A stretch of DNA of 64,000 nucleotides from Clostridia bacterium (GCA_017450465.1 JAFSUW010000007.1:6247-70246); one strand, 5' to 3'. Positions 1,617 to 46,925 are shown, counted from the first letter of the stretch. Notes: generated by a model not told the origin, from the sequence alone. A program made the numbers and translations.

Positions 1617-1742
1617 TGGCGAAAGAAGGGACGGGGGTAAATGACACAAACAGGGTCAGTTAGCCCCGTCCCATTGAACGCATTTACGTCGAAAGACGTA
1701 TAATGCGAGTGGCGAACTTAAGTTCGCCACTACAAGTTTGCG
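1617..1742 (+). repeat. Structured GC-rich three-hairpin element (family 1, copy 1) in the rpoB 5' leader
   Basis: GAAAGAAGGGACGGGGG opens hairpin 1 (closed by CCCCGTCCC), then CATTGA, hairpin 2, and hairpin 3 AGTGGCGAACTTAAGTTCGCCACT followed by ACAAGTTTG. It is co-linear with the copy at 21472-21595, with compensatory changes in all three stems. Confidence 0.7.
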
Positions 1743-1835
1743 GATATTTCTAACTTTAGATTTACTCGCATAAACATTAATTAATTTAACAAAATTTCTT
1801 CAATTAAAATTTTGAAAAAACTCGTATAAAATATA

Positions 1836-1864
1836 TTGACTTTTCAATATTTTTATTATAAAAT
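1836..1864 (+). promoter_or_regulatory. Candidate sigma-A promoter for rpoBC (TTGACT-17-TAAAAT)
   Basis: TTGACT at 1836-1841 and TAAAAT at 1859-1864 with a 17-nt spacer, upstream of rpoB. Confidence 0.35.
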
Positions 1865-2069
1865 CATAAAATGTATGGTTAGAATGCCTAAGTTTACATA
1901 AAAGTTAAGAAATAAGGACTGATTAGATATTGTATAAAGTGGAGTATTGTTGTAATTAAAGGATGTTAAAGGAACAAGTTAAGATGAAAATCGCTTGCTC
2001 CATTTTGTCGTTCAAATAATATTTACTTTTACAAGAATAATTACCAAAAAGAAGGGATTGATTTTTAGT

Positions 2070-5000
2070 ATGCACAAAATTAAGTTGGGAAAAAATGAAA
2101 GAATGTCTTTCTCAAGAATTCCTGAAAAACTCGAACTACCTAATCTTATTGAGGTACAAAAAGATTCTTACGAATGGTTTGTAAGAGAAGGCCTTCGTGA
2201 AGTATTTAGAGATGTATCTCCAATCACAGATTATACGGGAAATCTAATTCTTGAATTTTTGGATTATTCTATGAAGGATGAACCTAAATATACTATCGCA
2301 GAGTGTAAAGAAAGAGATGCTACATATGCAGCTCCATTAAAAGTTAAAATTAGACTTATAAATAAAGAAACAGGCGAAGTAAAAGAACAAGAAATATTTA
2401 TGGGCGATTTCCCTATCATGACAGACAGTGGAACATTTATCATAAATGGTGCTGAACGTGTTGTTGTAAGTCAGCTTGTTCGTTCACCTGGTGTTTACTA
2501 TGATATGGCATATGATAAAGTTGGTAAAAAACTATTCTCTGCAACTATTATCCCAAATAGAGGTGCATGGATAGAATACGAAACCGACTCTCAAGATATA
2601 TTCTCAGCAAGAATAGATAGAACAAGAAAAGTACCAGTAACAACTTTCTTAAGAGCACTTGGTATTGCAACCGATGCAGAATTTATTGAAATTTTTGGCG
2701 AAGATGAAAAAATCATGGCTACACTTCAAAAAGATCCTGCAAAGACAATAGAAGATGCTTTAATTGAAATATATAGAAGGTTACGTCCTGGTGAACCACC
2801 TACAGTAGATAGTGCAAAGAGCTTACTTATGGCTATGTTCTTCGATCCACGTCGTTATGAAATGGCACGTGTTGGTAGATATAAATATAATAAGAAGTTA
2901 GCTTTAGCAAATCGTATTCGTGGACAGGTAGCAGCAGAAACTATAAAAACTAAAGAACAAGTTTTTGTTAAAGCTGGAGAAGTTATCGATAGACAAACAG
3001 CTATCGATATCCAAAATGCTGGTATAAACGTTGTATATATCGATGTAGAAGGTAAAAAATTAAAAATTATAGGTAACAATACAGTTGATGTTACAAAATA
3101 CATTAAAACTGATTTAAGTGATTTAGGTGTAAAAGGTTATGTTTGCACTGGAGTTTTAATGGAGATTTTAAAAGAAAACAAAAAACAAGCAGATATAATT
3201 GAAGCAGTAAGACAAAGATATGCAGAACTTACACCTGGTGTAATTACTATGGATGATATTATTGCTTCTGTTAACTATTGCTTAAATCTAGAATATGGCA
3301 TTGGCACAACAGATGACATCGACCATTTAGGTAATAGAAGAATTCGTTGTGTTGGTGAATTACTACAAAATCAATTTAGAATTGGTTTATCAAGAATGGA
3401 AAGAGTTATTCGTGAAAGAATGACAATTCAAGACATGGATATTGCAACACCACAAGCGTTAGTAAATATTCGTCCTGTAGCTGCCGCTATTAAAGAATTC
3501 TTTGGTAGCAGCCAGTTATCACAATTCATGGATCAGAATAACCCACTTGCAGAATTAACTCATAAAAGAAGACTTTCTGCTTTAGGTCCTGGTGGTTTAA
3601 GTCGTGAAAGAGCCGGATTCGAAGTTCGTGATATCCACTATTCACACTATGGACGTATGTGCCCAATAGAAACTCCAGAAGGTCCAAACATTGGTCTTAT
3701 TGGTTCACTTGCTACATTTGCAAGAATAAATGAATATGGTTTTATTGAAACACCTTATAGAAAAGTAGATCCAAAAACAGGTGTTGTTACTGATGATATC
3801 GAATATATGGCAGCTGATGAAGAAGATGGTTACATCTTAGCAACAGCAACAGAGCCACTTGATAAAAACAATAAATTTGTAAATCCAAAAACAAAGGTTA
3901 GAAAACGTGCAGAAATCTTAGAGGTAGAAAGTGAAAAGATTGAACTTGTTGACGTTTCACCAAAACAAATCGTTTCAGTTGCTACAGCTATGATACCATT
4001 CCTAGAAAACGATGATGCTAACCGTGCGTTAATGGGTGCAAACATGCAAAGACAGGCAGTGCCTTTAATTAGAACAGATTCTCCAATAGTAGGAACTGGT
4101 ATTGAATATAGGGCTGCTAAAGATTCTGGTGTTTGTATTTGTGCAAAAAATGCAGGAACAGTTGAAAGAGTAACTGCAGATGAAATCACAATTAAGACAA
4201 AAGAAGGAAAAATTGATAGTTATAGATTAGTTAAGTTTAAACGTTCAAACCAAAGCACATGTATAAATCAAAAACCAATTGTTAAGAAAGGTGAAAAAGT
4301 TGCAAAAGGCGACGTAATTGCCGATGGACCAGCAGTAGATAATGGTGAACTTGCACTTGGTAAAAACATTTTAATTGGTTTCATGACTTGGGAAGGTTAT
4401 AACTACGAAGATGCTATTTTAATTAGTGAAAGACTTGTTCGTGAAGATGTATTTACATCAATTCACATTGAGGAATATGAATCAGAATCAAGAGATACAA
4501 AACTTGGACCTGAAGAAATTACTCGTGATATTCCAAACGTTGGTGAAGATGCCTTAAAAGATCTTGATGATCGTGGAATAATTAGAATTGGTGCAGAGGT
4601 ACGTTCTGGCGATATATTAGTAGGTAAAGTTACTCCAAAAGGAGAAACAGAACTTACAGCAGAAGAAAGATTACTTCGTGCAATATTCGGAGAAAAAGCT
4701 CGTGAAGTAAGAGATACTTCACTTAGAGTTCCACATGGTGAAGCTGGTATCATTGTAGATGTTAAGATATTTACAAGAGAAAACGGCGATGAAATGACAC
4801 CAGGTGTTAACGAAATTGTAAGAGTATATATAGCACAAAAAAGAAAGATTTCAGTCGGAGATAAAATGGCTGGACGTCACGGAAATAAAGGTGTTGTATC
4901 AAGAGTATTACCTGAAGAAGATATGCCATTTATGGCAGACGGAACTCCACTTCAAATAGTGTTAAACCCACTAGGCGTTCCTTCTCGTATGAACATAGGT

Positions 5001-5825
5001 CAGGTACTTGAAGTTCACTTAGGATATGCAGCAAAAGCCCTTGGTTTTAAGATTGCAACTCCTGTATTCGATGGCGCAAAAGAAAAAGATATATGGGAAG
5101 CATTAGATGAAGCTGGCTTAAGCCACGATGGTAAGACGACACTTTATGATGGAAGAACTGGAGAGCCATTTGATAGACAAGTAACCGTAGGTTATATGTA
5201 TATGTTAAAACTCCACCATCTTGTAGATGATAAAATCCATGCTCGTTCAACTGGTCCTTACTCACTTGTTACACAACAACCTCTTGGTGGTAAGGCACAA
5301 TTTGGTGGACAGAGATTTGGTGAAATGGAAGTTTGGGCCCTTGAGGCATATGGTGCTGCTTACACACTTCAAGAAATCTTAACAGTAAAATCCGATGACG
5401 TTGTTGGACGTGTTAAGACATATGAAGCAATTGTAAAAGGCGAAAACGTTCCTGAAGCTGGTATTCCAGAATCATTCAGGGTACTTGTAAAAGAACTTCA
5501 AAGTTTGGGATTAGATGTTAAAGTATATTCAGATGAAAATGAAGAAGTTGCAATTAAAGAATGTGTTGAGGATGAACTTGATGACGAACTTTCAGTTAAC
5601 ATGGAAGGCACAGAAGATTTGCAATTTGTTCATCAATACGACGAACCAGCAGGGGATGACATTACTATTGAAAATGAAGATGGCGATGACGAAGACCTTG
5701 AAGATGATGAATTAGATGATGATTTAGGCGGTGCAGATTTAGACTTTAACGATGACTTAAATTTCGAAGACGAAATAAATGAACTTGAAGATACCGATGA
5801 TGACGATACCGACGATGATATCTAA
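2070..5825 (+). CDS. rpoB: DNA-directed RNA polymerase beta subunit
   Basis: N-terminus [30 protein letters not shown] aligns with Firmicute RpoB. The body is canonical ([33 protein letters not shown]; [21 protein letters not shown]), with a roughly 90-aa poly-acidic C-terminal tail. The ORF track opens at 1995; the in-frame ATG at 2070 is the preferred start. Confidence 0.95.
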
Positions 5826-5878
5826 TAAAATTCATTAATTGATTTGTTTAATGTATTTTGAAAGTAGGAGGAAAATGT

Positions 5879-9488: not shown

Positions 9489-11297
9489 GTGGTTTTTGTG
9501 GAAGAAATAAATGATGTAGCTAGCTCTTTTTTGAAAGAGGTAGATAAAATTTTAAATAGTCGAAATACTGATATAGCAAGTGAATTAACAAAATTATTGG
9601 ACCAAATAGATAGTGACTTAAGTAAAATAAGTGCTGAAAAACGAGCTATAGTTAAGCAGTTAATTAATGAATCTATAGTTGAAATAAAAAGATATGTTAA
9701 TAAACAAGATGATAAAGTGCGTAATGGCATTCAAATAGCTGTAAAACGTAATTTATCTCAAGCAGAAGAACAAGAAGATATTGATGATCAAAAAAAACAT
9801 GTAAACAGTTTAGAAGTAAATATGACTAGTAGTAAAAATGATGGCAAGATTGATTCTGAACATGTAAGATCGTATATTCTAGAAGCTTTATATCATAAAA
9901 TAGATATAAATTTAGATCCAGGGGATATATCTTCAGCTACTGGAAGAGAAGATATTTTTGCTACACTAACTAGAGCAAGTAAAATAATAAGTGAAGCAGG
10001 AGATCTTGATGTTATAAAACTTGCTGTAAAAAGAAACATAAATCTTTTTTTAGAAAAATTAAATGAGTATTCTAGAGCATCAGATTCTAAATTAGAAGAA
10101 GCAATTAAAGATTTTTGTGATAAATTGAAGATGCAAGTAAAAGAAGCTGAAATTGATAGTTCAGAGCATAAAGAAGAACGAATAGATGGAGAAGAACCAA
10201 CAGGCAATCGTTTTGGATTAAAAAAAGGTGCCACTTCAGAATTATCTGTTGAAGTACCAGAGCAAGAAGAAGGTATGGAAGTTGGGAAAGAAACAATGGG
10301 AACAAGTGTTGAAGTGCCAGAACAAAGACCAGAAAATACAAGGGAGTTTTCAATAAAGGCAAGTGATATATTTCCAGGAGAGGAAACAGGAATTGATGTG
10401 CCAGAAGAAAGAGAAGGCACTACAGGAAAAAGATTAGATCCAATAGATATATTTCCAAGAGAGGAAGCAGGAGTTGAAGTACCAGAGGAAAGAGAAGGGA
10501 CAACAGGAAAAAGATTAGATCCAATAGATATATTTCCAAGAGAGGAAGCAGGAGTTGAAGTACCAGAGGAAAGAGAAGGGACAACAGGGAAAAGATTAGA
10601 TTCAAGTGATATATTTCCAGGAGAGGAAGCAGGAGTTGAAGTACCAGAGGAAAGAGAAGGTACAGCAGGAGAAACACTGGATGCAAGTAATAGAGTGGTT
10701 GAAGTACCTGAAGAGGGATATGGAATAGATGATAACAATTCTGAATTAGCACGTTTAAAAGCTGAATTAGAAAAAGAAAGAGTAGCAAGAGAAAACGCTG
10801 AACGAGAAAACGCCGAACTAAAAAAATCTAATGCAGAATTAAATTCTGAATTAGTAGTTAGAATAGACGAAAATGGAAGTTTAAGAGCAAGCTTAAAAGA
10901 AAGGAAAGAACAAATTGCTGGGTTAACTCATGATTTAGAAGTTATGAAAGGGGAAAATACTACATTAAGAGGTATAAATGATAACTTACGAGAAAAAAGT
11001 TCTAATTCACAAGAACAATATGAAAATGCAGCCACAATTGTTATAGGTCTTAGCGGTGAAGTGACAAGGTTAACGGATGAATTAAATGATGCTAAAAAAC
11101 AAATAGCTGGGACAAAAGCAGATGCTGAGAAACAAGTAGCTGAAGCAAAAGCTGAAACGAGAGCTACAGTTGCTAAGTCAAAAGAATTTTTTAACTTTGT
11201 AATGAAGTTAGTTAATGAGTTATCAAATTCAAAAAATCCATTACATAGAAAAACAGGTATAGAATTATCAGAAAAAATTGGTGAGTTTGAACATTAA
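9489..11297 (+). CDS. Hypothetical cytoplasmic acidic protein with 27-aa tandem repeats and a C-terminal coiled coil
   Basis: GTG start (9489 or 9498) after GAGGTGG. The unit EVPEEREGTTGKRLDPIDIFPREEAGV is repeated 4 times. The C-terminal region ELARLKAELEKERVARENAERENAELKKSNAELNSEL is coiled-coil-like. There is no signal peptide or TM segment. Confidence 0.6.
   Translation: MVFVEEINDVASSFLKEVDKILNSRNTDIASELTKLLDQIDSDLSKISAEKRAIVKQLINESIVEIKRYVNKQDDKVRNGIQIAVKRNLSQAEEQEDIDDQKKHVNSLEVNMTSSKNDGKIDSEHVRSYILEALYHKIDINLDPGDISSATGREDIFATLTRASKIISEAGDLDVIKLAVKRNINLFLEKLNEYSRASDSKLEEAIKDFCDKLKMQVKEAEIDSSEHKEERIDGEEPTGNRFGLKKGATSELSVEVPEQEEGMEVGKETMGTSVEVPEQRPENTREFSIKASDIFPGEETGIDVPEEREGTTGKRLDPIDIFPREEAGVEVPEEREGTTGKRLDPIDIFPREEAGVEVPEEREGTTGKRLDSSDIFPGEEAGVEVPEEREGTAGETLDASNRVVEVPEEGYGIDDNNSELARLKAELEKERVARENAERENAELKKSNAELNSELVVRIDENGSLRASLKERKEQIAGLTHDLEVMKGENTTLRGINDNLREKSSNSQEQYENAATIVIGLSGEVTRLTDELNDAKKQIAGTKADAEKQVAEAKAETRATVAKSKEFFNFVMKLVNELSNSKNPLHRKTGIELSEKIGEFEH
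10366..10720 (+). repeat. 81-nt near-perfect tandem repeat (about 4.3 copies) inside the 9489-11297 CDS
   Basis: The unit ACAACAGGAAAAAGATTAGATCCAATAGATATATTTCCAAGAGAGGAAGCAGGAGTTGAAGTACCAGAGGAAAGAGAAGGG repeats at 10420, 10500 and 10581, with partial copies flanking. This repeat explains the antisense ORFs 9893-10738 and 10420-10788. Confidence 0.85.
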
Positions 11298-11346
11298 TAA
11301 ATTATTGTTTGTTGGGGAGAATTTTTAATATGAAATATTAAAAATT

Positions 11347-11434
11347 CTGTAGGGGCGAACTGTGTTCGCCCACAAAAAAGAGTCAATTTATTGGTGCGGG
11401 AGACCACGGGTCTCCCCTACATTAGTTTGATAAA
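11347..11434 (+). repeat. GC-rich double-hairpin element (family 2, copy 1) between the repeat protein and ruvB
   Basis: CTGTAGGGG + hairpin GGCGAAC-TGT-GTTCGCC + CAC + spacer + hairpin GGGAGACC-ACG-GGTCTCCC + CTACATTAGTTTGATAA. It has the same architecture as 45539-45617 with different stem sequences. Confidence 0.7.
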
Positions 11435-11542
11435 TCATTATAAATAGAAATTCAATCATCCCGATAAACAATAATTTGTATACTTGAACAAAATTTCTTA
11501 ATCATATATAATACAAATATAAAACGATTAAGGAGAAAACTA

Positions 11543-12535
11543 ATGAATGATGAAGAAAGAATTGTTTGTCCGGGTATAAAGGAAGAGGATAAAGAAGAAA
11601 CATCTCTTCGCCCTAAATGGCTTAAAGATTATATGGGGCAAACTAAGGTAAAAGAAAATTTATTAATATGTATAGAAGCAGCTAAAAAGCGTGAAGAAGC
11701 ACTTGACCATATACTTTTATATGGTCCTCCAGGTCTTGGCAAAACTACTTTGGCCAATATCATTGCTAATGAAATAGGTGTAAATATAAGAATAACATCT
11801 GGTCCTGCAATAGAACGACCTGGAGATTTAGCAGCGATACTTACTAATTTATCAGAACACGATGTATTATTTATAGATGAAATTCATAGATTAAGTAGAA
11901 GTGTAGAAGAAGTGTTGTATCCTGCACTTGAAGACTATGCACTAGATATAATAATAGGGAAAGGTCCTTCGGCACGTTCGATCCGTCTTGATTTACCTAA
12001 ATTTACTTTAATAGGAGCAACAACAAAAGCAGGAATGTTAACGTCACCACTTCGTGATAGATTTGGTGTAATAGAACGACTTGAACTTTATTCACCTGAG
12101 GAACTTTCACAGATAGTAAGGCGTTCTGCAAATATTTTAAAAACAGAAATAGACGAAGACTCATTACTAGAAATTGCATCAAGATCACGAGGCACTCCAA
12201 GAATAGCAAATAGATTATTAAAAAGAGTTCGTGATTATGCAGAGGTTAAAGGTAACGGAAGTATAACTTTAAGTGTTGCCGAAGAGGCATTAAAGAAGCT
12301 AGAAGTAGATGAGTTGGGACTTGATAATATTGATAGAGTATTATTAAAAACAATGATTAAAAACTTTGGCGGTGGTCCAGTAGGACTTGAAACTTTAGCG
12401 GCTTCCATAGGAGAAGATCCAGACACGATAGAAGATGTATATGAACCATATTTATTGCAACTTGGATTTATAACAAGAACGCCACGAGGCAGGTGTGCAA
12501 CAGAACTTGCAAAGAATCATTTAGAAATAAAATAA
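11543..12535 (+). CDS. ruvB: Holliday junction branch-migration helicase RuvB
   Basis: [17 protein letters not shown] Walker A and DEIHRL sensor motifs; 330 aa. No ruvA lies upstream. Confidence 0.9.
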
Positions 12536-12557
12536 CGGGTTTGCCCGTTATTTTTTT
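12534..12557 (+). terminator. Rho-independent terminator after ruvB
   Basis: AACGGGTTTGCCCGTT hairpin followed by ATTTTTTTG. Confidence 0.7.
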
Positions 12558-12619
12558 GTAAATAAATTGTCAAAATTTGACGATATAGATATTGAAAAAA
12601 CACAAAGGAGGAAACGAAT

Positions 12620-13393
12620 ATGCAAAAAGCAATCGGTGCAATTGTAGTAGCTGTAGTTATATTTCTTGTAATAACACTTCTAGGTGGTGCATTTGTAACA
12701 ATACCAGCAGGTTTTGTTGGTGTAAAGACACAGTTTGGTGCGGTAGTTGGTAGCGAATTACAACCAGGTTTGCATTTTAAAGTACCAGTTATTCAAGGAA
12801 TAAATAAAATTGATTGTAGGATTCAAAAAATTGAAGTAGCCACAAGTGCTGCAAGTAAAGATCTTCAGACAGTTACAAGTAAAGTAGCGGTAAACTTTGC
12901 AGTAAGGTCAGATAAAGCAACAGAACTTTATCAAGAAGTAGGAAAGAATTATGAAACAGTTATTATTGAGCCGGCAGTATTTGAATCAGTAAAAATGGCG
13001 ACATCACAATATACAGCTGAAGAATTACTTTCTAAAAGAAGTGAAGTATCTTCAAAAATGCTTGAGCTACTTATAGAAAAAGTTGCAGAAAGAGGAATAA
13101 ATGTAAACGACGTAAACGTAGTAGATTTTGATTTTAGTGCAGAATTTAATTATGCTATAGAGCAAAAACAAGTAGCACAACAAAACGCATTAAAGGCAAG
13201 TCAAGATTTAGAAAGAGTAAAAATAGAAGCAGAACAAAAAGTTGTTCAAGCAAAAGCAGAAGCAGATGCATTAAAACTTAGAAAAGAAGAAATAACAAAA
13301 GAATTACTTGTGTTAGAAGCAATACAAAAATGGGATGGCAAACTTCCTACATATATGGGTTCTGATGAAGTTCCTTTTCTTAGTGTAAGGTAA
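12620..13393 (+). CDS. SPFH/band-7 (prohibitin/HflK-C-like) membrane protein
   Basis: N-terminal TM segment, then an SPFH-like region (VKTQFGAVVGSELQPGLHFKVPVIQ ... ATSQYTAEELLSKRSEVS) and a C-terminal coiled coil. Confidence 0.75.
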   Translation: MQKAIGAIVVAVVIFLVITLLGGAFVTIPAGFVGVKTQFGAVVGSELQPGLHFKVPVIQGINKIDCRIQKIEVATSAASKDLQTVTSKVAVNFAVRSDKATELYQEVGKNYETVIIEPAVFESVKMATSQYTAEELLSKRSEVSSKMLELLIEKVAERGINVNDVNVVDFDFSAEFNYAIEQKQVAQQNALKASQDLERVKIEAEQKVVQAKAEADALKLRKEEITKELLVLEAIQKWDGKLPTYMGSDEVPFLSVR

Positions 13394-13411
13394 ATAATTG
13401 TTTATGTGAGT

Positions 13412-13530
13412 TGATATTTGGTGGACCGATGTGGGCATCAGCCCCTACGTTGGTTTTGTGTAATCCATTATTTGTGCCATTTATACACATATTTTGTAGT
13501 GGCCGATGTCCACATCGGCCACATTTTGAC
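13412..13530 (-). repeat. GC-rich hairpin element (family 2-like, minus orientation)
   Basis: The reverse complement reads GTAGGGGCTGATGCCCACATCGGTCC ... GTGGCCGATGTGGACATCGGCCAC + TACAAAATAT. It shares the GTAGGGG 5' motif and the CCACTACAA(A/G)(A/T)T 3' tail with the other copies. The ORF 13411-13629 across it is spurious. Confidence 0.6.
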
Positions 13531-13574
13531 ACAACAAAATACTTTGCAAAACAACAATTTATTTGTATAAAAAT

Positions 13575-19636: not shown

Positions 19637-19758
19637 CATGGCGCCATAAGATAAAATAAAATCTGTTACTTTAATAATATAGCACGGAATAAGAAAATAA
19701 TCAATAGGGAGTTAAAAATTAGTTATATAAATTAGAATTTTGTAGGGGAGGTATTTTC

Positions 19759-20658: not shown

Positions 20659-21447
20659 TTGAAATTACTAAGGATAATATTTTTTGTATCACTTTTTGTA
20701 TTTGCTTATTTTATTGGTTACAAAATATACGCGAAAAATCAAGCAATAAAGCTTAAAGGGCGAAGGGTAAAAAAGAAAAATGTAAGCAACGTGTTACTAC
20801 AATTTAAGAAGTATATTCCAGATGTTGAAAATTTATATACATATATAGTCACAAAAATTATGTTATTTATTACTTTTTTGTATTTAGGAACTACCAATTA
20901 TGAGTCAATTTTTATGGGACTTGTTTTTAGTATACTTGGCTTTATGCTACCTGATTTTATGATAAAAATAATGAAAAATGCTGAAAAAAAGCAAGTACTA
21001 ATTGATTTATTAAATGTGGTTGAAAGTATAAAAATTCAGATGTCATCAAACATTCCACTTATTGTTGCACTAAAAAACATACCTTCTGTTTGTAAGAATA
21101 AAAAGCTAAAAAATGCTTTAGTAGATATGCAGCTAGAGTATGAATTAAGTGGGTATAGTTTGATATCTAGTTGTAAGAGCATGAGGAAAAAATTTAAATT
21201 TGTTGAGATAAATATGTTTTTATCTGCTATAGAACAACAGGTAAAGTACGGCAGGGCAGCTGAAACATATGAAAATTTAATTACTATATTAAAAGAAAAA
21301 TATATCGAGTACATAGAAAATAATACTCAAACCAAAATGTTATTTATGACACTTGGGATTGTCATAGTTTTGATAAATCTTGCAGTTATGGGGTGCTATC
21401 CAATAATTGTAGAGGTAAATCAAAATTTATCGACAATGTTAGGATAA
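20659..21447 (+). CDS. TadC-like pilus assembly membrane protein (T2SS-F domain)
   Basis: TTG start after AAGGAGAG. GspF-like region LLNVVESIKIQMSSNIPLIVALKNIPS ... FLSAIEQQVKYGRAAETYENL flanked by TM segments. Confidence 0.6.
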   Translation: MKLLRIIFFVSLFVFAYFIGYKIYAKNQAIKLKGRRVKKKNVSNVLLQFKKYIPDVENLYTYIVTKIMLFITFLYLGTTNYESIFMGLVFSILGFMLPDFMIKIMKNAEKKQVLIDLLNVVESIKIQMSSNIPLIVALKNIPSVCKNKKLKNALVDMQLEYELSGYSLISSCKSMRKKFKFVEINMFLSAIEQQVKYGRAAETYENLITILKEKYIEYIENNTQTKMLFMTLGIVIVLINLAVMGCYPIIVEVNQNLSTMLG

Positions 21448-21471
21448 GTATTTATTTGTGAAAAAACTTCC

Positions 21472-21595
21472 AGCGAAAGAAGGGACGGGGGTGTTTGACA
21501 CAAACAGGGTAAAACACCCCCGTCACATTGAGCTTATTATCCGCACTTTTTGCGGATAATAAGAGTGGAACACATGGTGTTCCACTACAAATTTA
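21472..21595 (+). repeat. Structured GC-rich three-hairpin element (family 1, copy 2) between the TadC-like gene and the pilin candidate
   Basis: GAAAGAAGGGACGGGGGTGTTT-GACACAAACAGGGT-AAAACACCCCCGTC, CATTGA, hairpin CTTATTATCCGCA/TGCGGATAATAAG, and hairpin AGTGGAACACATGGTGTTCCACT + ACAAATTT. Confidence 0.7.
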
Positions 21596-21711
21596 AGAAT
21601 AATTCATACTTTAGGTTAAAGTTCCTATAAAAAGGAAATCAAATTGGATATAATGGGACCGGCTTTATATATATAAATTAAATTATTACACAAAAGAAAG
21701 GATGATTTTTT

Positions 21712-22582: not shown

Positions 22583-22656
22583 TTTTAATGGTAGACTGTA
22601 AATTATTATTTGTTGGGGGGATATCCCCCAACAAATAAAACTTAAAGGAGGCATTT

Positions 22657-28321: not shown

Positions 28322-28948
28322 ATGCAGAAGATGTATAAAGAAGCATTAGAAAAAAGCAAAATAACTCAAAAGAGCAATAATAATATTCAATATGATGTAG
28401 GATATGACGTTAACGGAAAACCTTATATTGAAATAAAAAACGATATATTAGATGGAGTTCCTGAAAAAGAATGGGTAAAAAAAGTAAAAGATGTTTTGAA
28501 AGAAAAGTTTCCAAATGGGATTGATATGGAATTTTTTAATATCTCAATAACAAAACAAAGCAGAAATGAATATACAAATTCAAAGTATTCAAACAAATTA
28601 CGAAGAAATAACACTAATCTATTTGCAGACAAGATGAGAATGGCAAATAATGCAGATGAAATTGTACAAAATGCGTATAATGTTAGAAACGAGGATATTA
28701 AGCATTTAAGGAAAGATGATATCGTAAGCTTTAATAGAAGCAATATTGATGTAAAAGTCGGGAACCAAATGTATCAAGTAGATGTTGTTACAGGAATAAC
28801 TAAAAATAATAATGAAATATTCTATGATATTGTTAATATAAAAAAGAAGGTGCTCCAGAATACGACTAGTGTAAATAATGCACAGCGCAAGACAGGAACA
28901 TCTTCTATCAATAATATACAACAGAATAACAAATCTGTCAATACATAG
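28322..28948 (+). CDS. Hypothetical soluble Asn/Lys-rich protein
   Basis: ATG 28322 after GAGGAGAAAGG. No TM segment. Fragments of its 3' end recur downstream at 29060-29225. Confidence 0.4.
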   Translation: MQKMYKEALEKSKITQKSNNNIQYDVGYDVNGKPYIEIKNDILDGVPEKEWVKKVKDVLKEKFPNGIDMEFFNISITKQSRNEYTNSKYSNKLRRNNTNLFADKMRMANNADEIVQNAYNVRNEDIKHLRKDDIVSFNRSNIDVKVGNQMYQVDVVTGITKNNNEIFYDIVNIKKKVLQNTTSVNNAQRKTGTSSINNIQQNNKSVNT

Positions 28949-29059: not shown

Positions 29060-29225
29060 AGGATAGTATATCTGTCAATAAATGGTATTTAGATTCAAAA
29101 TTTGTTTTATGGTATTATTGAAAAATAGAGACATTACTTTATAGGTGAACTGCAAAAGCAGACCCTAAGGAAAGCAATGTCTCTATTAATAATATACAGC
29201 AGAATAACACATAAGTCAATAAAAT
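29060..29225 (+). pseudogene. Remnant 3'-end fragments of a paralogue of the 28322-28948 gene
   Basis: 29165-29222 translates to KADPKESNVSINNIQQNNT*, against the intact gene end TGTSSINNIQQNNKSVNT*. A second short match is ATCTGTCAATAAATGGTA at about 29068-29085. Confidence 0.45.
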
Positions 29226-29283: not shown

Positions 29284-31608
29284 ATGAAAAAAGTAGAGTT
29301 ATTATCCCCTGCTGGTGGATATGATTGTTTTATAGCAGCAGTTGAAAATGGTGCCGATGCGGTTTATTTAGGCGCGAGTTCTTTTAATGCAAGAAATTTT
29401 GCAAATAACTTTACAGATACTGAACTAGAAGAAGCAATAAATTATGCTCATGCGAGAAATGTAAAAGTGTATATTACGCTTAATATTTTGTTAAATGATG
29501 ATGAAGTAAACGACGCAGTTTCTTTGGCAGTTAGGTTACACAACATGGGCGCAGATGCTTTTATAGTTCAAGATATTGGCTTAATGGATTTGTTAAAGAA
29601 AAATATTCCTAACGTGAATATACATGTAAGTACACAGGCAACTATTTATAGCAGTGAAGGGATAAAAGCGATTGATAGTTTAGACGTAAGCCGTGTGGTT
29701 TTGGCACGTGAATTATCCTTAAAAGAAATAGAAAATGTTTGTAAAAATACAGATAAAGAAATTGAAGTTTTTATACATGGTGCGTTATGTGTTTGTTATT
29801 CCGGACAATGTAGATTAAGTAGTATGGTGGGAGAACGTAGTGGCAATAGAGGGAAGTGTGCACAACCTTGTAGACTTCCATATACAATTGTAGGTAATGG
29901 CAAAGAAATAAAAACAAATTATGCTTTGTCACCTAAAGATTTGTGTACACTTTCGCTTTTGCCAGATTTAATAAAAGCAGGTGTTACTTCATTAAAAATA
30001 GAAGGCAGAATGAAGTCGCCTGAATATGTGGCATGTGTTACAAGAATTTATAGAAAATATATCGATTTATATTATTCTGGCAAAGAATATAAAGTTGATG
30101 AAAATGATATTTTTGACTTAAAACAAGTGTTTAACAGGGGTAATTTTTCAACTGGATATTTTATAAAAAATTTAGGCCCAGATTTAATGGCAACCAAAAG
30201 GGCCAAAAACTGGGGTACGTACCTAGGTAAGGTGTTAAATTACAACCATAGGAAGAAGTTTTTAATAATAAAACTTGAGGAAGACCTTGCTGAAGGTGAC
30301 GTAGTTGAAATATTATCTGGTGAGCCAGTTAGTAATATTGTTACATATATAAATGACGGAAAAACGCAGGTAAAGAAAGCATATAAAGGGCAAGTTGTAA
30401 CAATTGGTGATTTTGAAGGTAATTTTGAAATAAACCAAGAAATTTATAAGATGTCTAGCATTGAGCAACAAAAGGTGCTTCGTGAAAGTTTTAATGGAAA
30501 GTTTTATAAAAAGATTCCTGTTACGTGTAGTATAACTATAAAAATTGGTAAAAATGTAGAATTAGAAATGACTGAAGGGAATAACACTGTAAAAGTTGTA
30601 AGTGATTTTATTGTAGAAGAGGCAATAAAACATGCTACAACTATTGAGGATGTTGAAAAGTCACTTGGAAAATTAGGTGATACGCCATTTATTTTGAGTG
30701 ATGTAAATATCGGTATGCAAGAAGATAGTTCAGTGCCCCAAAAAGTATTGAATGAACTTAGAAGAAATGCGGTAGAAGAACTTATAAAATTAAAAACTTC
30801 TATTCCACATAAGGTTGAGTTTGAAAAGATAGAAGAAGTAGAAGTTAATAATGTAAGTAGAAAGCCAAAAATATCCGTTTATTTATACAATACTAAAAAC
30901 TTAGGTGGCTTAAAAGAAGCGGATAGAGTATATGTTCCTTATTTTGATTATATAAATAACAAAGAAGAAATTTTATCAAAACTAGAGGGTATAGAAGTAA
31001 TACCTTATTTAAGACCGATAACTAAAAATGTTACATTAAAGGATGAAGTTGAAAGTATATTGGTTGCTAATCTTGAGCACATAGATATTTTTAAAAACCT
31101 TGCAAAAAATATTTATGGAGATTACTCGTTAAATGCGTTTAATTCGCATACTTGTTTAACGTACAAAAAGTTGGGGCTAAAGGGTATAAATTTATCGTTT
31201 GAACTTAATCTTGAACAAATCAATAATATAAAAACTGATTTAATAAAAGAAGTAACTGTCTATGGTACTTTGCCACTTATGATAAGTGAGCACTGTGCTA
31301 TAGGAAGCGAAATAGCAAAGAAAATAGATTGTGGACTATGTGAAAAAGGCACATATGAATTAAAAGATAGAACTGGTGCGAAGTTCCCTATAATTACTGA
31401 TAGAGCAAATTGCAGGAGTATGATATTAAATTCTAAGAAACTAGTTTTATCTGATGCGATTAGTATTATTGAAGATGTAGATTTTTTAAGATTATATTTT
31501 TATGATGAGACAGAAAGTGAACGTGAAAACATTATAAAATCAATAAAAGAGAACAAAAAAATAAGCTGTGCTAATAGCACAGCAGGGTTATTCTATAGAG
31601 TTGTGTGA
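29284..31608 (+). CDS. Peptidase U32 family protein (long form with a DUF3656-type C-terminal domain)
   Basis: VELLSPAGGYDCFIAAVENGADAVYLGASSFNARN N-terminal U32 signature and Cys-rich CVCYSGQCRLSSMVGERSGNRGKCAQPCRLPY; 774 aa. Confidence 0.8.
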   Translation: MKKVELLSPAGGYDCFIAAVENGADAVYLGASSFNARNFANNFTDTELEEAINYAHARNVKVYITLNILLNDDEVNDAVSLAVRLHNMGADAFIVQDIGLMDLLKKNIPNVNIHVSTQATIYSSEGIKAIDSLDVSRVVLARELSLKEIENVCKNTDKEIEVFIHGALCVCYSGQCRLSSMVGERSGNRGKCAQPCRLPYTIVGNGKEIKTNYALSPKDLCTLSLLPDLIKAGVTSLKIEGRMKSPEYVACVTRIYRKYIDLYYSGKEYKVDENDIFDLKQVFNRGNFSTGYFIKNLGPDLMATKRAKNWGTYLGKVLNYNHRKKFLIIKLEEDLAEGDVVEILSGEPVSNIVTYINDGKTQVKKAYKGQVVTIGDFEGNFEINQEIYKMSSIEQQKVLRESFNGKFYKKIPVTCSITIKIGKNVELEMTEGNNTVKVVSDFIVEEAIKHATTIEDVEKSLGKLGDTPFILSDVNIGMQEDSSVPQKVLNELRRNAVEELIKLKTSIPHKVEFEKIEEVEVNNVSRKPKISVYLYNTKNLGGLKEADRVYVPYFDYINNKEEILSKLEGIEVIPYLRPITKNVTLKDEVESILVANLEHIDIFKNLAKNIYGDYSLNAFNSHTCLTYKKLGLKGINLSFELNLEQINNIKTDLIKEVTVYGTLPLMISEHCAIGSEIAKKIDCGLCEKGTYELKDRTGAKFPIITDRANCRSMILNSKKLVLSDAISIIEDVDFLRLYFYDETESERENIIKSIKENKKISCANSTAGLFYRVV

Positions 31609-33757: not shown

Positions 33758-33800
33758 TTGTAGCCAAGCGTATGCTTGGCTATTTTATGAGGAGGACACA

Positions 33801-36844: not shown

Positions 36845-36888
36845 ATATTTTGTAGTGGCCGATGCCTACATCGGCCATATTTCAACAT
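36845..36888 (-). repeat. Single-hairpin GC-rich element (half-copy of the 13412-13530 type)
   Basis: TTTTGTAGTGGCCGATGCCTACATCGGCCATATTT; the reverse complement gives hairpin TGGCCGATG/CATCGGCCA + CTACAAAATATTT. Confidence 0.55.
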
Positions 36889-41130: not shown

Positions 41131-41802
41131 ATGGCAAAGATACTTATAGTTGATGATGAAGAAAAGATAAGAGAATTTGTAAAGAAATATGCAGTATTTG
41201 AAGGACATAATGTAGTGGAAGCATCAAATGGTATGGAAGCAATAGATATTTGTAAAAAAGAAAAGTTTGATATCATTGTTTTAGACATTATGATGCCGGA
41301 ACTTGATGGTTTTTCTACCTGCAAAGAACTTCGCAAATCTATAGATACTCCAATTATTATGCTATCAGCACGTGGTGAAGAGTATGATAAAATTCATGGC
41401 TTTGAAATAGGTATAGATGACTACGTTGTAAAGCCATTCTCACCTAAGGAACTTATGATGCGTATTGATGCGATATTAAAGCGTACGCAAAAGGTGGCAA
41501 ATACTCAAAACGAAGTATTTGAAAAAGATACATTAAAAATAGATTTTACTGCAAGAATAGTCACAATAGATGGTAAGAAAATTGATTTATCGCCCAAAGA
41601 ATATGACTTACTATTTTATATGGTAAAGAATAGAGGAATAGCACTTACTCGCGAAAAACTTTTAACAGATGTTTGGGGATATGATTTCTTTGGTGATGAT
41701 AGAACTTTGGATACGCATATAAAACTTCTTCGTAAGAGTATTGCACCATATAATAATTTGATTGTAACTTTAAGAGGGGTGGGATATAGATTTGAAGCAT
41801 AA
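41131..41802 (+). CDS. OmpR-family response regulator
   Basis: Receiver D-box (ILIVDDEE ... IIVLDIMMPELDG) and winged-helix C-terminus (LTDVWGYDFFGDDRTLDTHIKLLRKSI ... LRGVGYRFE). Confidence 0.85.
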   Translation: MAKILIVDDEEKIREFVKKYAVFEGHNVVEASNGMEAIDICKKEKFDIIVLDIMMPELDGFSTCKELRKSIDTPIIMLSARGEEYDKIHGFEIGIDDYVVKPFSPKELMMRIDAILKRTQKVANTQNEVFEKDTLKIDFTARIVTIDGKKIDLSPKEYDLLFYMVKNRGIALTREKLLTDVWGYDFFGDDRTLDTHIKLLRKSIAPYNNLIVTLRGVGYRFEA

Positions 41803-43222: not shown

Positions 43223-43225
43223 AAA

Positions 43226-43262
43226 AATTCCTCCCGAATAAATTTGTTTGGGAGGAATTTTT
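43226..43262 (+). terminator. Terminator after the kinase gene
   Basis: ATTCCTCCCGAATAAATTTGTTTGGGAGGAAT hairpin + TTTT; it overlaps the RBS of the next gene. Confidence 0.6.
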
Positions 43263-43793
43263 ATGCGAAAAATAATTTTTATAAGCTTATTATTACTAGT
43301 TTCTTGTAAGAAAAATGAGGAAATTAAAGATGTTGATACAATACTTATGTCTATAAAAAATTATACATGCGACACAAGAATAGAAAGATTTTCTAATAAA
43401 AACGTATTGGTTTTTAACGCAAAAGAAACGTATAAATATCCAGATAATTATTCTATATGTTTTGATGATGATACTAATATTTCGTACATAAATAATATTT
43501 TGACAATACATAACGGGAAAACAGGCGATAAAAAAGAAATATCAGATTACCAAAACATAAATAAAAATCCACTTTTTTTATCATATTTTTTGAACACATA
43601 TTTTAATAATAGAAGTGACGTATCAAAGGACAGTAGTGAAGTAACAATTGTTTTGCCGGATAATAATTCCTATTTATATAAAGCAACACTAAAAACTAAT
43701 AATAATGTACCTTATTCGCTTACATACTTCGATAAGAACGATACGCCATTAGTCAACATAATATATAATAAGTTCGATTTTGAGTCACTTTAA
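43263..43793 (+). CDS. Lipoprotein, hypothetical
   Basis: MRKIIFISLLLLVSC lipobox; ATG 43263 after GGAGGA. Confidence 0.5.
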   Translation: MRKIIFISLLLLVSCKKNEEIKDVDTILMSIKNYTCDTRIERFSNKNVLVFNAKETYKYPDNYSICFDDDTNISYINNILTIHNGKTGDKKEISDYQNINKNPLFLSYFLNTYFNNRSDVSKDSSEVTIVLPDNNSYLYKATLKTNNNVPYSLTYFDKNDTPLVNIIYNKFDFESL

Positions 43794-43897
43794 TATGTTT
43801 GACTTTAATAAAAAAATTATGTTAGAATTAATACGTTAAAATAAAGTTTAACAAATTGAATAAATAAGCATTCTTTAGGAAATAATTGTATTAAGGT

Positions 43898-43932
43898 GAT
43901 TTGAATTGAACTTTTCACCTACAAAAGTTTTC
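43898..43932 (+). repeat. Degenerate copy of the hairpin-CTACAA(A/G)TTT repeat module, upstream of mazF
   Basis: GGTGA-TTTGAATTGAACTTTT-CACC hairpin + TACAAAAGTTTT tail (compare CCACTACAAGTTTG at 1727-1740). Confidence 0.35.
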
Positions 43933-43950
43933 TAACGGAGTGTGAAGCGC

Positions 43951-44301
43951 GTGATTATAAAAAGAGGAGACATTTACTATGCAGATTTAAGCCCTGTTGT
44001 TGGCTCCGAGCAAGGTGGCGTTCGACCTGTTTTGATTGTGCAAAATAATGTTGGCAACAAGTTTAGCCCTACGGTGATAGCAGCGGCAATAACTTCGCAG
44101 ATAAATAAAGCAAAAATGCCTACTCATATAGAAATAGGTGCAGCAGACTATGGTTTATCTAAAGATTCAGTTATACTGCTCGAACAAGTAAGAACCATAG
44201 ACAAAAAACGCTTAAAAGAGCGTATAGGACACCTAAACGAGCACCTTATGAATAGGGTTAATGAAGCAATAGAAATAAGTTTCGGTTTAGAAGAAGAATA
44301 A
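43951..44301 (+). CDS. ndoA: MazF/EndoA (NdoA) type II toxin endoribonuclease
   Basis: [62 protein letters not shown] is close to B. subtilis EndoA (the two aligned N-terminal segments differ at only a few positions). The GTG at 43951 matches the EndoA N-terminus; an alternative GTG is at 43942. Confidence 0.85.
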
Positions 44302-44322
44302 ATTATAAAAGGGGAGATACAT

Positions 44323-44826
44323 ATGATAAAACTCATGAAATACAAAAGAATTTTTATCATTGCATCAGTTTTAATACTATTATTTAGTGCGGTGGTATAT
44401 GCTGCGGTAACGCCAGGTAGTGCAGATGACCCACTAATAACGCTTAGTTATTTTAATGAAAAATTTGATGAAAAGATGGAAGAGTTTTTAGAGGAACTAA
44501 AAGATTATTTAGAAGAGAAACTAGATACCGATAAAGAACCAGAAAAAAGTGCTTCTGCAACATTCGAATTAATTAATATAAAAGCGGGTTCAATTCTTGT
44601 TTGTGGTGAAGGAACTGAGTTTATAATAAGAACTGGTAAAATGGATGCGGTAGCATCAAGCTCAGGAGGACTTTCGGATGTAACGAGTGGCGAAAATATT
44701 GCTGGTGGCGTACCGGTACCACTTAATCACCACATTGTAATACCAAGAAATGATGGTAGAGGGTTAAATGTATTAATTGGCGGAGCAGTAATGATACGAG
44801 GCGAATATGATATAATAGAAGAGTAG
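44323..44826 (+). CDS. Hypothetical membrane-anchored protein
   Basis: N-terminal TM segment (IFIIASVLILLFSAVVYAAV), an acidic linker and a Gly-rich C-terminal domain. Confidence 0.4.
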   Translation: MIKLMKYKRIFIIASVLILLFSAVVYAAVTPGSADDPLITLSYFNEKFDEKMEEFLEELKDYLEEKLDTDKEPEKSASATFELINIKAGSILVCGEGTEFIIRTGKMDAVASSSGGLSDVTSGENIAGGVPVPLNHHIVIPRNDGRGLNVLIGGAVMIRGEYDIIEE

Positions 44827-44900
44827 TGGCGACACTACTCTTTTTTCTTGATAAGTAGTTTTTAGTGTGCTAAAATTTGACTATAGGAGAGTAACATAAA

Positions 44901-45503
44901 ATGAAACAGATATTATTTGCAACAAGTAATGAAAGTAAGTCTAAGAGATTTACTAGAGGGCTTAAAGACAAAGGAATAGAAGTATTGACATTAAAAGACA
45001 TAGGTAAAGAAATAGATATTGAAGAAGATGGTAAAGATGCAATTGAGAATGCATTAAAAAAAGCGAGGGCATATGCGAAAGTTGTTGATATACCAGTGTT
45101 CGCTATGGATGACAGTTTGTATCTTGAAGGAGTGCCAGAAGAAAAACAGCCAGGATTAAATGTAAGACGTGTAAATGGTAAGCGGTTAACTGATGAAGAA
45201 ATGTTAGAACACTACATAAACTTAGTAAAAACTTATGGTGTAGATGGAAAACTTACTTGTAAGTGGATATATGGAATGGCAGTAATTAACGACGGGAAAG
45301 AATATACATATACTTGGAGTAAAGAAGATTTTTATATGGTAGATAAGTTATCAGATAAAGTAAATCCAGGATATCCATTAAATACAATATCTATAAATAA
45401 AAAATTAAATAAATACTTTACATATATCACACCAGAAGATAGATTAAAACTAAATGAAGATGAAAGCGATGTAGTAGAGTTTATTGCAAAGAGTGTTAGA
45501 TAA
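44901..45503 (+). CDS. Hypothetical protein; weak resemblance to the Ham1/ITPase-like NTP pyrophosphatase N-terminus
   Basis: ILFATSNESKSKRF resembles the (V/L)ATxNxGKxxE start of the RdgB/Ham1 family; the rest is unassigned. Confidence 0.3.
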   Translation: MKQILFATSNESKSKRFTRGLKDKGIEVLTLKDIGKEIDIEEDGKDAIENALKKARAYAKVVDIPVFAMDDSLYLEGVPEEKQPGLNVRRVNGKRLTDEEMLEHYINLVKTYGVDGKLTCKWIYGMAVINDGKEYTYTWSKEDFYMVDKLSDKVNPGYPLNTISINKKLNKYFTYITPEDRLKLNEDESDVVEFIAKSVR

Positions 45504-45538
45504 ATTGTTGTTTATCTGAGTAAATGAATTTATTAAAA

Positions 45539-45617
45539 TCGTAGGGGCGGGGTTCCATCCCCGCCCACCAACATTGTACACGGGCGAGCCAGGAGACTCG
45601 CCCCTACAGTTTGATAA
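45539..45617 (+). repeat. GC-rich double-hairpin element (family 2, copy 2) upstream of the rsgA paralogue
   Basis: CGTAGGGG + hairpin GCGGGGTTCCATCCCCGC + CCAC + spacer + hairpin GGGCGAG-CCAGGAGA-CTCGCCC + CTACAGTTTGATAA. Confidence 0.7.
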
Positions 45618-45767
45618 TTTGCCAACACATACTTCATTCACTAACATAAACAACAATAATTTATTGAATGATAAAAATGAAAGGAGAATTTTTTTGAAAA
45701 AATTTATGGTAAAAATGGAGCCCGTAGTTTCTTAAAATAAAAATATTTTAAGAAAAGGGGAATAAAA

Positions 45768-46820
45768 ATGAATATAAAAGATTATGGGTTAAAAAGTAAT
45801 GTAACAGAAAACATCGATAACATTGCAAGAATTATTGCAACGCACAAAGATATGTATGAAATCGTTTGTAACAAGGGTAAGGGATTCGCAAGAATAAAGC
45901 GAGGAGCGTTTTACGATAACCCAAATGCTATTTATCCTACGACTGGAGATTTTGTTTTAATTGAATTGAACGATAGTGGCGACAGTATGATTTATGAAAC
46001 ATTAAGAAGGAATAGTTCGTTTAGTAGAACGGCGTCTTCAAGTGATAGGGACCAAGAACTACGTAGTCAGCATGAGCAATTAGTTGCTGCGAATTTTGAT
46101 TATGTTTTTATTGTTATGTCATTAAATAATAACTTTAGCTTAAATAGAATTGAAAGGTATTTGGCACTTACTTGGGAATCAGGTGGCATTCCTGTAATAG
46201 TACTTACAAAACGCGATTTAGTGCAAAATGTTAGCGAATATATCGATAAAGTTAAAGATATTGCTTTTGGCGTTGATGTTTATGCAATAAGTTGTATAAC
46301 AAAAGAAGGGTTAGACGATATAAAGAAATACTTTGCAAAAGGAAACACCATTTGCTTTTTGGGCTCATCAGGTGTAGGAAAATCGACACTTGTAAATACT
46401 TTATATGGTGAAGAAGTAATGAAAACTTCTGAAATACGTGAGGAAGATTCTAGAGGAAGGCATACAACAACAGTAAGAAACTTAATAATGCTACCAAATG
46501 GTGCAATGGTTATAGATACACCAGGTATGCGTGAACTTGGAATGTGGAATGCAGAGGAAGGCATAAGTAAAACATTTAGCGATATAGAAGAGTATATAAA
46601 AATGTGTAAATACAGTGACTGTACGCATACAAACGAGCCAGGTTGCAAAATATTAGAACTAATTGAAAAAGGGGAACTTACCCGTGAAAGATACGATGAA
46701 TATGTAAAACTCATGAAAGAATCGCAGTACAACACAGACCCGGAGCAGTACTTAAAAAACAAAAAAGAAAAATTCAAGGAAATAACAAGAATAAATAAGT
46801 ATAATAAAAAGAAATATTAA
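45768..46820 (+). CDS. rsgA: Ribosome small-subunit-dependent GTPase A (circularly permuted GTPase)
   Basis: OB-fold N-terminus; G4 LTKRDL, G1 GSSGVGKST, G3 DTPG; DSRGRHTTT hallmark; C-terminal Zn knuckle CKYSDCTHTNEPGC. Confidence 0.85.
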   Translation: MNIKDYGLKSNVTENIDNIARIIATHKDMYEIVCNKGKGFARIKRGAFYDNPNAIYPTTGDFVLIELNDSGDSMIYETLRRNSSFSRTASSSDRDQELRSQHEQLVAANFDYVFIVMSLNNNFSLNRIERYLALTWESGGIPVIVLTKRDLVQNVSEYIDKVKDIAFGVDVYAISCITKEGLDDIKKYFAKGNTICFLGSSGVGKSTLVNTLYGEEVMKTSEIREEDSRGRHTTTVRNLIMLPNGAMVIDTPGMRELGMWNAEEGISKTFSDIEEYIKMCKYSDCTHTNEPGCKILELIEKGELTRERYDEYVKLMKESQYNTDPEQYLKNKKEKFKEITRINKYNKKKY

Positions 46821-46821
46821 T

Positions 46822-46925
46822 GTCACGAGGGACAGTCTTGTCAGAAGGGACGGGGGCAATTGACCACATTTATGTAATGTATCAAACGTGAGTACATAGC
46901 GAATATAAGACAACCACTTTTTAGA
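46822..46925 (+). repeat. Degenerate partial copy of the family-1 element directly after rsgA
   Basis: AGAAGGGACGGGGGCAATTGACCACA matches the family-1 5' segment but lacks its 3' partner; an unrelated hairpin ATATGCGATTTTCGCATAT lies downstream. Confidence 0.45.

Follow-up and report, generated by a model that had tools for sequence, protein, structure and literature searches.

A family of GTAG-tagged, GC-rich hairpin repeats, probably of REP type, in inverted-end mosaic elements of a low-GC Clostridia genome

A 64,000-nucleotide stretch of DNA from an uncultured Clostridia bacterium (GCA_017450465.1 JAFSUW010000007.1:6247-70246; that stretch, at its full length, is referred to here as the window) carries a dense family of short, GC-rich hairpins that are preceded by the tetranucleotide GTAG and are placed, usually as inverted pairs, within mosaics of 160-185 nucleotides (nt) that possess AT-rich arms and 12-base-pair (bp) inverted ends (AAATTRTTGTTT). 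The best explanation, and one that is considered probable, is that these elements are repetitive extragenic palindromic (REP)-type DNA repeats, arranged in mosaics resembling bacterial interspersed mosaic elements (BIMEs) and REP doublets forming hairpins (REPINs), and that they are non-autonomous and likely moved by an HUH enzyme of the REP-associated tyrosine transposase (RAYT) type. Selfish repeats of this kind are already known, and it is the host that is unusual; the elements constitute neither a new RNA nor a new class of system. A first-pass annotation of the window had proposed either a structured RNA family or a hairpin-recognized mobile or REP-like element; the second proposal is borne out by the GTAG palindromes, by their inverted pairing within inverted-end elements, by a duplicate at 97% identity, and by the rarity of the units in relatives.

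The unit common to the family consists of GTAG located directly 5' of a perfect GC-rich hairpin, the stem of which begins with [G/T]GG (Table 1). Because CC[A/C]CTAC is the reverse complement of GTAG[T/G]GG, every module described in the first-pass annotation proves to be a single motif read from either strand, including those that had been presented as distinct 5' (GTAGGGG) and 3' (CCACTACAA or CCCCTACA) motifs. The window was extended by way of two boundary proteins to 82.3 kilobases (kb), with 9.4 kb added upstream and 8.9 kb added downstream (negative coordinates denote positions upstream of the window, on contig L163), and a scan for GTAG plus hairpin identified nine units in the window and 11 in the 82 kb. 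The tag lies directly at the stem in all nine window units, in the two units upstream of the window, and in a unit from the closest relative (L167). Stems span 7-10 bp and are perfect in eight of the nine units (the exception being u4); they start with GGGC, GGGA or, when the paired G of the tag is counted, GTGG, and they enclose loops of 3-4 nt in seven units, of 6 nt in u8 and of 8 nt in u9.

This hairpin family is real and occurs far beyond chance expectation. When perfect hairpins with a stem of at least 7 bp and at least four G-C pairs were listed across the 82 kb, with no tag required, 23 were found, and 12 of them display GTAG or CTAC at the foot, corresponding to the 11 family units and to a terminator (33761-33782) whose stem happens to contain GTAG; block shuffles of the same 82 kb yielded 1.45 hairpins, and 0.05 that were tagged. 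Most of the untagged hairpins are associated with the runs of A or T that are typical of terminators. A covariance model built from four of the 23-nt units, and run without filters, recovered all nine units and added only a palindrome at 22612-22629. Three short motifs are also found more often than expected: GTAGGGGC (four against 0.31), AGAAGGGACGGGGG (three against 0.08) and CCACTACAA (six against 0.33, two of which, at 51348 and 53106, lie outside any element). The GC content of the elements, which had been put at about 60%, reaches that value (0.61) only at 45539-45617 and extends down to 0.41 in the others, against a background of 0.316.

Table 1. Mosaic elements, a related palindrome, and GTAG hairpin units in the window
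Feature	Position	Strand	Description
A1	1617-1786	+	Full A-type mosaic; fold z = -10.5; contains u1 as inverted REP unit
A2	21448-21625	+	Second full A-type mosaic; core 21472-21595; fold z = -9.8
A3	46822-46925	+	Decayed A-type fragment; no fold, z = +0.8
B1	11299-11482	+	184-nt mosaic; core 11347-11434; starts 2 nt past TAA stop of upstream gene
B2	45502-45662	+	Mosaic; outward-facing REP pair; AT-rich arms homologous; fold z = -5.3
C1	13392-13560	-	Mosaic with near-perfect inverted ends
C2	36837-36901	-	Half element: one arm plus one REP unit
Palindrome	22599-22640		Two B-type left ends, TAAATTATTATTTGTTGGGGG gatat CCCCCAACAAATAA; 12.5 bits
u1	1708-1733	-	GTAG TGGCGAAC ttaa GTTCGCCA(C); inside A1; 23.8 bits, covariance model
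u2	11349-11371	+	GTAG GGGCGAAC tgt GTTCGCCC; 23 nt; inside B1; 35.4 bits
u3	11398-11420	-	GTAG GGGAGACC cgt GGTCTCCC; 23 nt; inside B1; 35.1 bits
u4	13423-13448	-	GTAG GGGCTGATG ccca CATCGGTCC; two G.T pairs; inside C1
u5	13496-13522	+	GTAG TGGCCGATG tcca CATCGGCCA(C); inside C1
u6	21564-21588	-	GTAG TGGAACAC cat GTGTTCCA(C); inside A2; 31.1 bits
u7	36852-36878	+	GTAG TGGCCGATG ccta CATCGGCCA(T); inside C2
u8	45541-45566	+	GTAG GGGCGGGG ttccat CCCCGCCC; inside B2
u9	45579-45607	-	GTAG GGGCGAG tctcctgg CTCGCCC; inside B2

The superfamily that contains these units is likewise real, and comprises three sequence families (A, B and C in Table 1) with common terminal arms and a common GTAG hairpin module. 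GC-enriched hairpin elements are present at six of the positions listed in the first-pass annotation (1617-1742, 21472-21595, 11347-11434, 45539-45617 and, on the minus strand, 13412-13530 and 36845-36888). That list missed the palindrome at 22599-22640 and a second 184-nt copy that lies outside the window, and it drew the elements too small: 11347-11434 is just the core of the 184-nt element at 11299-11482, and a similar correction applies to the elements at 45502-45662 and 13392-13560. A further listed copy, at 46822-46925, survives as an A-type relic, of which only the 5' arm and linker are left, and another, at 43898-43932 (GC 0.29, with a 5-6-bp stem and a 14-nt loop), was not found by the covariance model and is set aside. 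All of the units are extragenic relative to real genes, as had been claimed, at a density of 11 units per 82 kb; the elements sit mostly just past stop codons or in promoter-distal spacers, and three of them have a left end that adjoins, or overlaps with, the TAA stop of the gene upstream.

Within B1, perfect 12-bp inverted ends (AAATTATTGTTT at 11299-11310 and AAACAATAATTT at 11465-11476) enclose a pair of outward-facing REP units together with an AT-rich hairpin (11318-11348). Overall, B1 is an imperfect palindrome that folds as single-stranded DNA with its ends paired (z = -7.2). In a self-comparison of the 82 kb, this element recurs in inverted orientation 15 kb away, at -4349..-4166 (L163:15655-15838), with 97.3% identity over 184 nt; the upstream copy (B3), located 4.2 kb upstream of the window, also possesses perfect 12-bp ends and an outward-facing REP pair. 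The ends of B2 (AAATTGTTGTTT at 45502-45513, which overlaps a TAA stop located at 45501-45503, and AAACAACAATAATTT at 45648-45662) form a near-perfect inverted repeat, while those of C1 correspond to AAATAATTGTTT at 13392-13403, overlapping the TAA stop of a band-7 gene, and to AAATTGTTGTTT on the minus strand at 13549-13560. The REP units of C1 are homologous, face inward and are able to pair with each other as in a REPIN, and C2 is homologous to the right half of C1 (84%, with 70 nt at 81%). The AT-rich arms that separate the REP units from the ends are homologous from one element to another, and the four exact occurrences of AATTRTTGTTT in the window, against an expected 0.96, are all located at the ends of elements. 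The palindrome at 22599-22640 is a minimal or remnant member of the family.

A terminator-like hairpin without a GTAG tag (AAGACCGATG tttc CATCGGTCTT) was also observed at -4143..-4120, adjoining the upstream B copy. Its stem core (CCGATG/CATCGG) is that of the C-type REP units, and it may be a source or remnant of the C-type stem, or a coincidence.

A comparison with related genomes demonstrated that the family is dense in this organism, absent or rare in its close relatives, and lineage-restricted. Against the 11 tagged units in 82 kb found here, the closest relative (L167, with 91% RuvB identity) contains one imperfect tagged unit in 9 kb, located between pfk and ruvB, and relatives at roughly 80-89% marker identity contain none in about 68 kb (L168 and L170, 85-86% RuvB identity, 38 kb; L172 and L175, about 80% RsgA identity, 17 kb; L177, 89% PorB identity, 12 kb). 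The rluD-rpoB spacer of L167 is without the A1 hairpin core (about window 1527-1720), and the flanks of the spacer, among them the promoter-like site for rpoB, align with those found here. L167 may contain a diverged version of part of the A1 3' arm, which leaves the exact boundaries uncertain. The first-pass annotation had advised looking for empty sites and target-site duplications: an orthologous site without the hairpin core was found for A1, and no direct repeat flanks B1 or B3, where AT-rich flanks could hide very short ones. The neighboring genes of the relatives differ at B2 and A3 (near rsgA), and the one relative examined at C1 has gpsA, rather than band-7, downstream of porB; clean boundaries were obtained at neither site. 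In a co-existing strain (L166), seven single-nucleotide polymorphisms (SNPs) occur in 5.8 kb, and three of the seven fall in the loop, stem and tail of the A1 REP unit (window 1718, 1725 and 1743), with the change in the stem uncompensated.

Additional observations on genome structure point in the direction of further copies and of rearrangement. Independent short-read assemblies end inside B elements (L002 and L003 start at window 11430, and L164 ends in the upstream B copy), which constitutes indirect evidence of further genomic copies. In five relatives pfk is followed directly by ruvB; here, the old site (between pfk and a Flg_new gene) holds a B element, and the ruvB-band7 segment (11543-13393) resides 15 kb away, between B1 and C1. 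The adjacency of pfk and ruvB in the relatives, together with the presence of repeats at the junctions in this genome, suggests a repeat-associated translocation of ruvB-band7.

The stems differ between copies and nonetheless stay paired, as had been reported initially: in an alignment fitted to the structure by the model, and including both strands of the same palindromes, 99.1% of stem cells are paired against 70% in shuffles, six of eight stem positions have changed on both sides, and slid controls fall to 26-55%. A manual table of ten units contains 67 Watson-Crick and three G.T pairs among 70 stem cells, and folding z-scores range from -4.5 to -10.5 in five of the six elements folded (a set that does not include 36845-36888). 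Retention of pairing despite sequence change, very stable folding (z to -10.5), the location of many copies directly past stop codons, where they would be co-transcribed, and the conservation between A1 and A2 of the loop GACACAAACAGGGT and closing stem of one hairpin while its inner stem differs, are all features that would be anticipated of a structured RNA family (either small RNAs, or cis-acting elements of leaders or 3'-untranslated regions) in which compensatory evolution at the RNA level preserves the hairpins.

That reading is nevertheless unlikely, and is given the lowest probability of any considered here. Both strands fold and both score with the covariance model because the hairpins are symmetric Watson-Crick palindromes, which is the signature of a DNA palindrome and not of a strand-specific RNA, and the elements show no bias of orientation relative to genes, being found in both. 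A search against Rfam 15 returned no match to any element at the gathering threshold or at E <= 5 (only two tRNAs reach threshold), and no family was found on 13 metagenome loci with similar hairpins. A1 is located upstream of both of two divergent promoter-like sites (1557 on the minus strand, for rluD, with 11 of 12 matches; and 1836 on the plus strand, for rpoB, conserved, with 10 of 12), and is therefore probably untranscribed. No plus-strand promoter-like site was found for A2, no own-strand T-run terminator was found for A1 or A2 (terminator-like calls being partial and confined to the opposite strand), and the elements have no promoter in common; the tagged hairpins are followed by CTAC or by A-rich sequence, with no direct T run. 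An independent small-RNA gene was rejected as a candidate on the basis that no consistent promoter or terminator exists. Furthermore, close relatives do not contain the elements (nor does the orthologous spacer of the nearest relative contain the A1 core), the co-existing strain carries a stem-breaking, uncompensated SNP, and A3 is visibly decaying. The 'compensatory changes' form a real pattern, one that different sequence types of a DNA palindrome would produce; they do not constitute evidence of selection at the RNA level, and any effect of the elements on mRNA 3' ends would be secondary.

As DNA repeats, the units correspond closely to REPs described in other bacteria. In a published definition, a REP contains GTAG or GTGG 0-2 nt 5' of a hairpin that has a basal stem of 7-20 fully paired nt, at least three G/C in the first four stem positions, and a loop of 2-5 nt (PMC6006769); seven of the window units conform fully to that description, and the other two deviate only in loop length. 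The SMAG or REPSm repeats of Stenotrophomonas maltophilia (PMC8266576, PMC3733652) similarly carry GTAG immediately 5' of a GC-rich palindrome that is perfect; they too are extragenic, are found either alone or in inverted pairs, and fall into several sequence types per genome. The Stenotrophomonas REP measures 23 nt, its perfect palindrome of 8 bp enclosing a 3-nt loop, and its cleavage by RAYT needs both the GTAG tag and an intact stem (PMC8266576); u2, u3 and u6 have exactly this construction (four tag nucleotides, an 8-bp stem and a 3-nt loop, for a total of 23 nt). The elements described here differ in that their host is a low-GC (32%) member of the Clostridia rather than a gammaproteobacterium, that the units lie inside longer AT-rich elements with inverted ends, and that no cognate RAYT was seen in the 82 kb.

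A second set of likenesses is found with the REPs and BIMEs of Escherichia coli and the REPINs of Pseudomonas (PMC2817692, PMC5581495), in which alternating REP units and linkers also form mosaics, a doublet is able to form a single long hairpin (as C1 can), and the repeats lie downstream of genes and are associated with the junctions of genome rearrangements. The palindromes of E. coli REPs are imperfect and bulged, in contrast to the perfect ones found here, and the mobile unit of REPINs ends at the REPs, whereas the duplicated unit of this genome continues about 45-60 nt further, to the 12-bp inverted ends. Palindrome-associated elements of the IS200/IS605 group also have subterminal hairpins that are recognized as single-stranded DNA by a Y1 HUH enzyme, possess a guide tetranucleotide 5' of the hairpin foot, and produce no target duplication; in those elements both end hairpins lie on the same strand and there are no inverted ends, unlike the inverted pairs, inverted ends and REP-type GTAG found here. 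Group 1 RAYTs have been reported from Clostridia (Bertels et al., PMC5581495), and a word search of the REP survey of Di Nocera et al. and of Nunvar et al. (PMC3733652, PMC2817692) found no mention of Firmicutes or Clostridia.

The mechanism that these comparisons point to is one in which non-autonomous elements would multiply and move within a lineage, with an HUH/Y1 single-strand DNA transposase of the RAYT (TnpA-REP) type as the most likely mobilizer. Such an enzyme would recognize the folded hairpin and its GTAG guide, and the differences between stems would then represent sequence types of a palindrome that is constrained to stay self-complementary as single-stranded DNA. HUH transposition leaves no target-site duplication. 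REPs are typically present in more than 100 copies per genome, and the cognate RAYT gene (Y1 HUH, PF01797) is usually flanked by its REPs. To our knowledge, nearly all work on REPs and their domesticated transposases has concerned Proteobacteria; a dense and recently expanded GTAG-REP family in a low-GC lineage of gut Clostridia would extend the known host range of such repeats, and would offer a natural test of the persistence of GC-rich hairpins in a genome of 32% GC. These repeats also break metagenome assemblies and sit at gene-order breakpoints, and are thus of consequence for binning and for synteny analysis.

Several observations weigh against this assignment. No RAYT or Y1 transposase was found among all open reading frames (ORFs) of the 82 kb when they were searched with E. 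coli RayT (phmmer), and the same query returned two weak, unrelated matches among all fetched loci, L034 and L050, in the latter of which the search pattern falls inside a Y1 transposase coding region of a GC-rich organism. The nine units comprise at least six stem types, which is unusually diverse for a single genome, and two hairpins of the A-type elements have no GTAG tag, a feature that the REP model does not explain. Finally, the duplicated unit is the whole 184-nt element with its inverted ends, and not the REP pair alone, and a 97% duplicate bounded by inverted ends is also what a MITE (a miniature transposable element that has inverted repeats) moved by a DDE transposase would look like.

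This last possibility represents the main rival explanation: that the elements are classical MITEs, derived from an insertion sequence by deletion, and that a DDE transposase recognizes their 12-bp AAATTRTTGTTT ends and moves them in double-stranded form, with the GTAG hairpins serving as internal passengers or as stabilizing structure. Beyond the duplication of a unit bounded by perfect ends, the same ends flank B2 and C1, all of their exact matches in the window occur at element ends, and the whole element is an imperfect palindrome; the bacterial MITEs known as Correia, ERIC and RUP are likewise intergenic, non-coding imperfect palindromes of 100-200 nt with terminal inverted repeats. The MITE explanation is weakened by the lack of a target-site duplication at B1 or B3 and by the GTAG[G/T]GG tag common to GC-rich hairpins of several unrelated stem types, which it leaves unexplained, as it does the solo tagged units without arms found in C2 and in L167. 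In addition, the feature conserved across sub-families here is the GTAG hairpin and not the ends; no parent insertion sequence is known, and inspection of the 82 kb revealed neither a transposase gene nor a longer parent carrying these ends; and a plasmid collection searched with B1 and A1 yielded no match, so that no similarity to plasmid-borne elements is evident. Movement as DDE-type MITEs is accordingly judged to be improbable, and the assignment to REP-type repeats is preferred. A more elaborate version of the latter can be offered only tentatively: the elements might be substrates of an as yet undescribed clostridial HUH/RAYT-type system, for which the mobile unit would be the whole inverted-end mosaic, carrying the untagged A hairpins (with the GACACAAACAGGGT loop) as passengers, such that mosaics reshuffle the chromosome and the B copy at pfk marks the ancestral position of ruvB.

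The A-type elements raise a separate question of composition. The 5' part of A1 contains the motif GAAAGAAG, a first hairpin (1628-1672) with the conserved loop GACACAAACAGGGT, a linker (CATTGAAC) and a second hairpin (1680-1706), and its AT-rich 3' arm ends in a degenerate end motif at 1772-1782; in A2 the degenerate end motif begins directly after a TAA stop (21445-21447). The two copies have in common 59 nt at 85% identity and the 3' arm. A3 retains AGAAGGGACGGGGG and the ATTGA linker, which represent the A module's 5' arm and linker; its hairpin 1 is missing both loop and 3' arm, and the remainder has diverged. Hairpins 1 and 2 might constitute a separate entity that was fused only by chance to a REP unit, either as the recognition structure of a different enzyme or as what remains from one of the ends of an autonomous element. 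The A module has no GTAG tag, has conserved motifs of its own (GAAAGAAGGGACGGGGG and CATTGA), and is found three times in a constant orientation relative to its REP, and a GAAG-tagged hairpin is also present 8 kb upstream of the window. Set against these points, only two full copies and one fragment are available, no gene was seen in association with the module, and a search of the Genome Taxonomy Database (GTDB) species representatives (among which the source species is not included) with the A-type 5' motif returned only 34 single chance matches in unrelated GC-rich taxa; a separate origin is thus held to be quite unlikely. Hairpin 1 was also considered as a REP with a CGTC tag, and was rejected in that capacity because CGTC forms part of the paired stem rather than an unpaired tag. 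The GAAG-tagged hairpin (GAAG GGGCGAT gttaa GTCGCCC, then ATTTTATTT) lies at L163:19487-19509 (window about -8020..-7998), with GAAG in place of GTAG; GAAG also precedes hairpin 1 of the A-type copies.

A metagenome scan with the B-type tail, CCCCTACA(N0-3)GTTTGATAA, returned mostly chance matches. Several unrelated contigs contain GTAG hairpins ahead of a B-type tail, where the tail is forced by the search pattern; since this is so, and since tagged REPs are very common, GTTTGATAA is not treated as a conserved functional motif. Its possible role as an ISDra2-like TTGAT target found no support and was dropped. In another, unrelated gut bacterium of about 44% GC, a single locus, represented by the human-gut contigs L047, L052, L069, L073, L074 and L141, carries GTAG-hairpin insertions that differ between samples. 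The insertion in L047 has inverted GTAGGGGCTGGCG... ends of about 26 nt, and all of these insertions are found just upstream of the same ...CCCCTACACAGTTTGATAAACAAATATCA and terminator, which looks like REP insertion polymorphism at a hotspot.

The window as a whole (31.6% GC) encodes rluD, rpoB, rpoC, ruvB, a four-subunit pyruvate:ferredoxin oxidoreductase operon, and Tad and type IV pilus genes, among others, and a metagenome scaffold is 100% identical to positions 1543-22535. Three further repeat structures were encountered in the course of the analysis. Five to six tandem 81-nt (27-codon) repeats with 86-93% identity occupy window 10248-10764, inside an ORF (9489-11297) whose 602-residue product has no family match beyond weak SMC-like coiled-coil matches. 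At least five paralogous N-methyl (type IV pilin-like) genes, with 65-88% DNA identity, extend from window 62946-64000 into the downstream sequence (L159:11171-14338), in an array that comes after a T2SS-F gene. Finally, a 40-nt direct repeat with 88% identity (TCTATCAATAATATACAACAGAATAAC...) is found at 28904-28943 and 29182-29221, upstream of a gene at 29284 that encodes 774 amino acids; a weaker third copy is located at 19667, and the repeat may represent the duplication of an operator or promoter.

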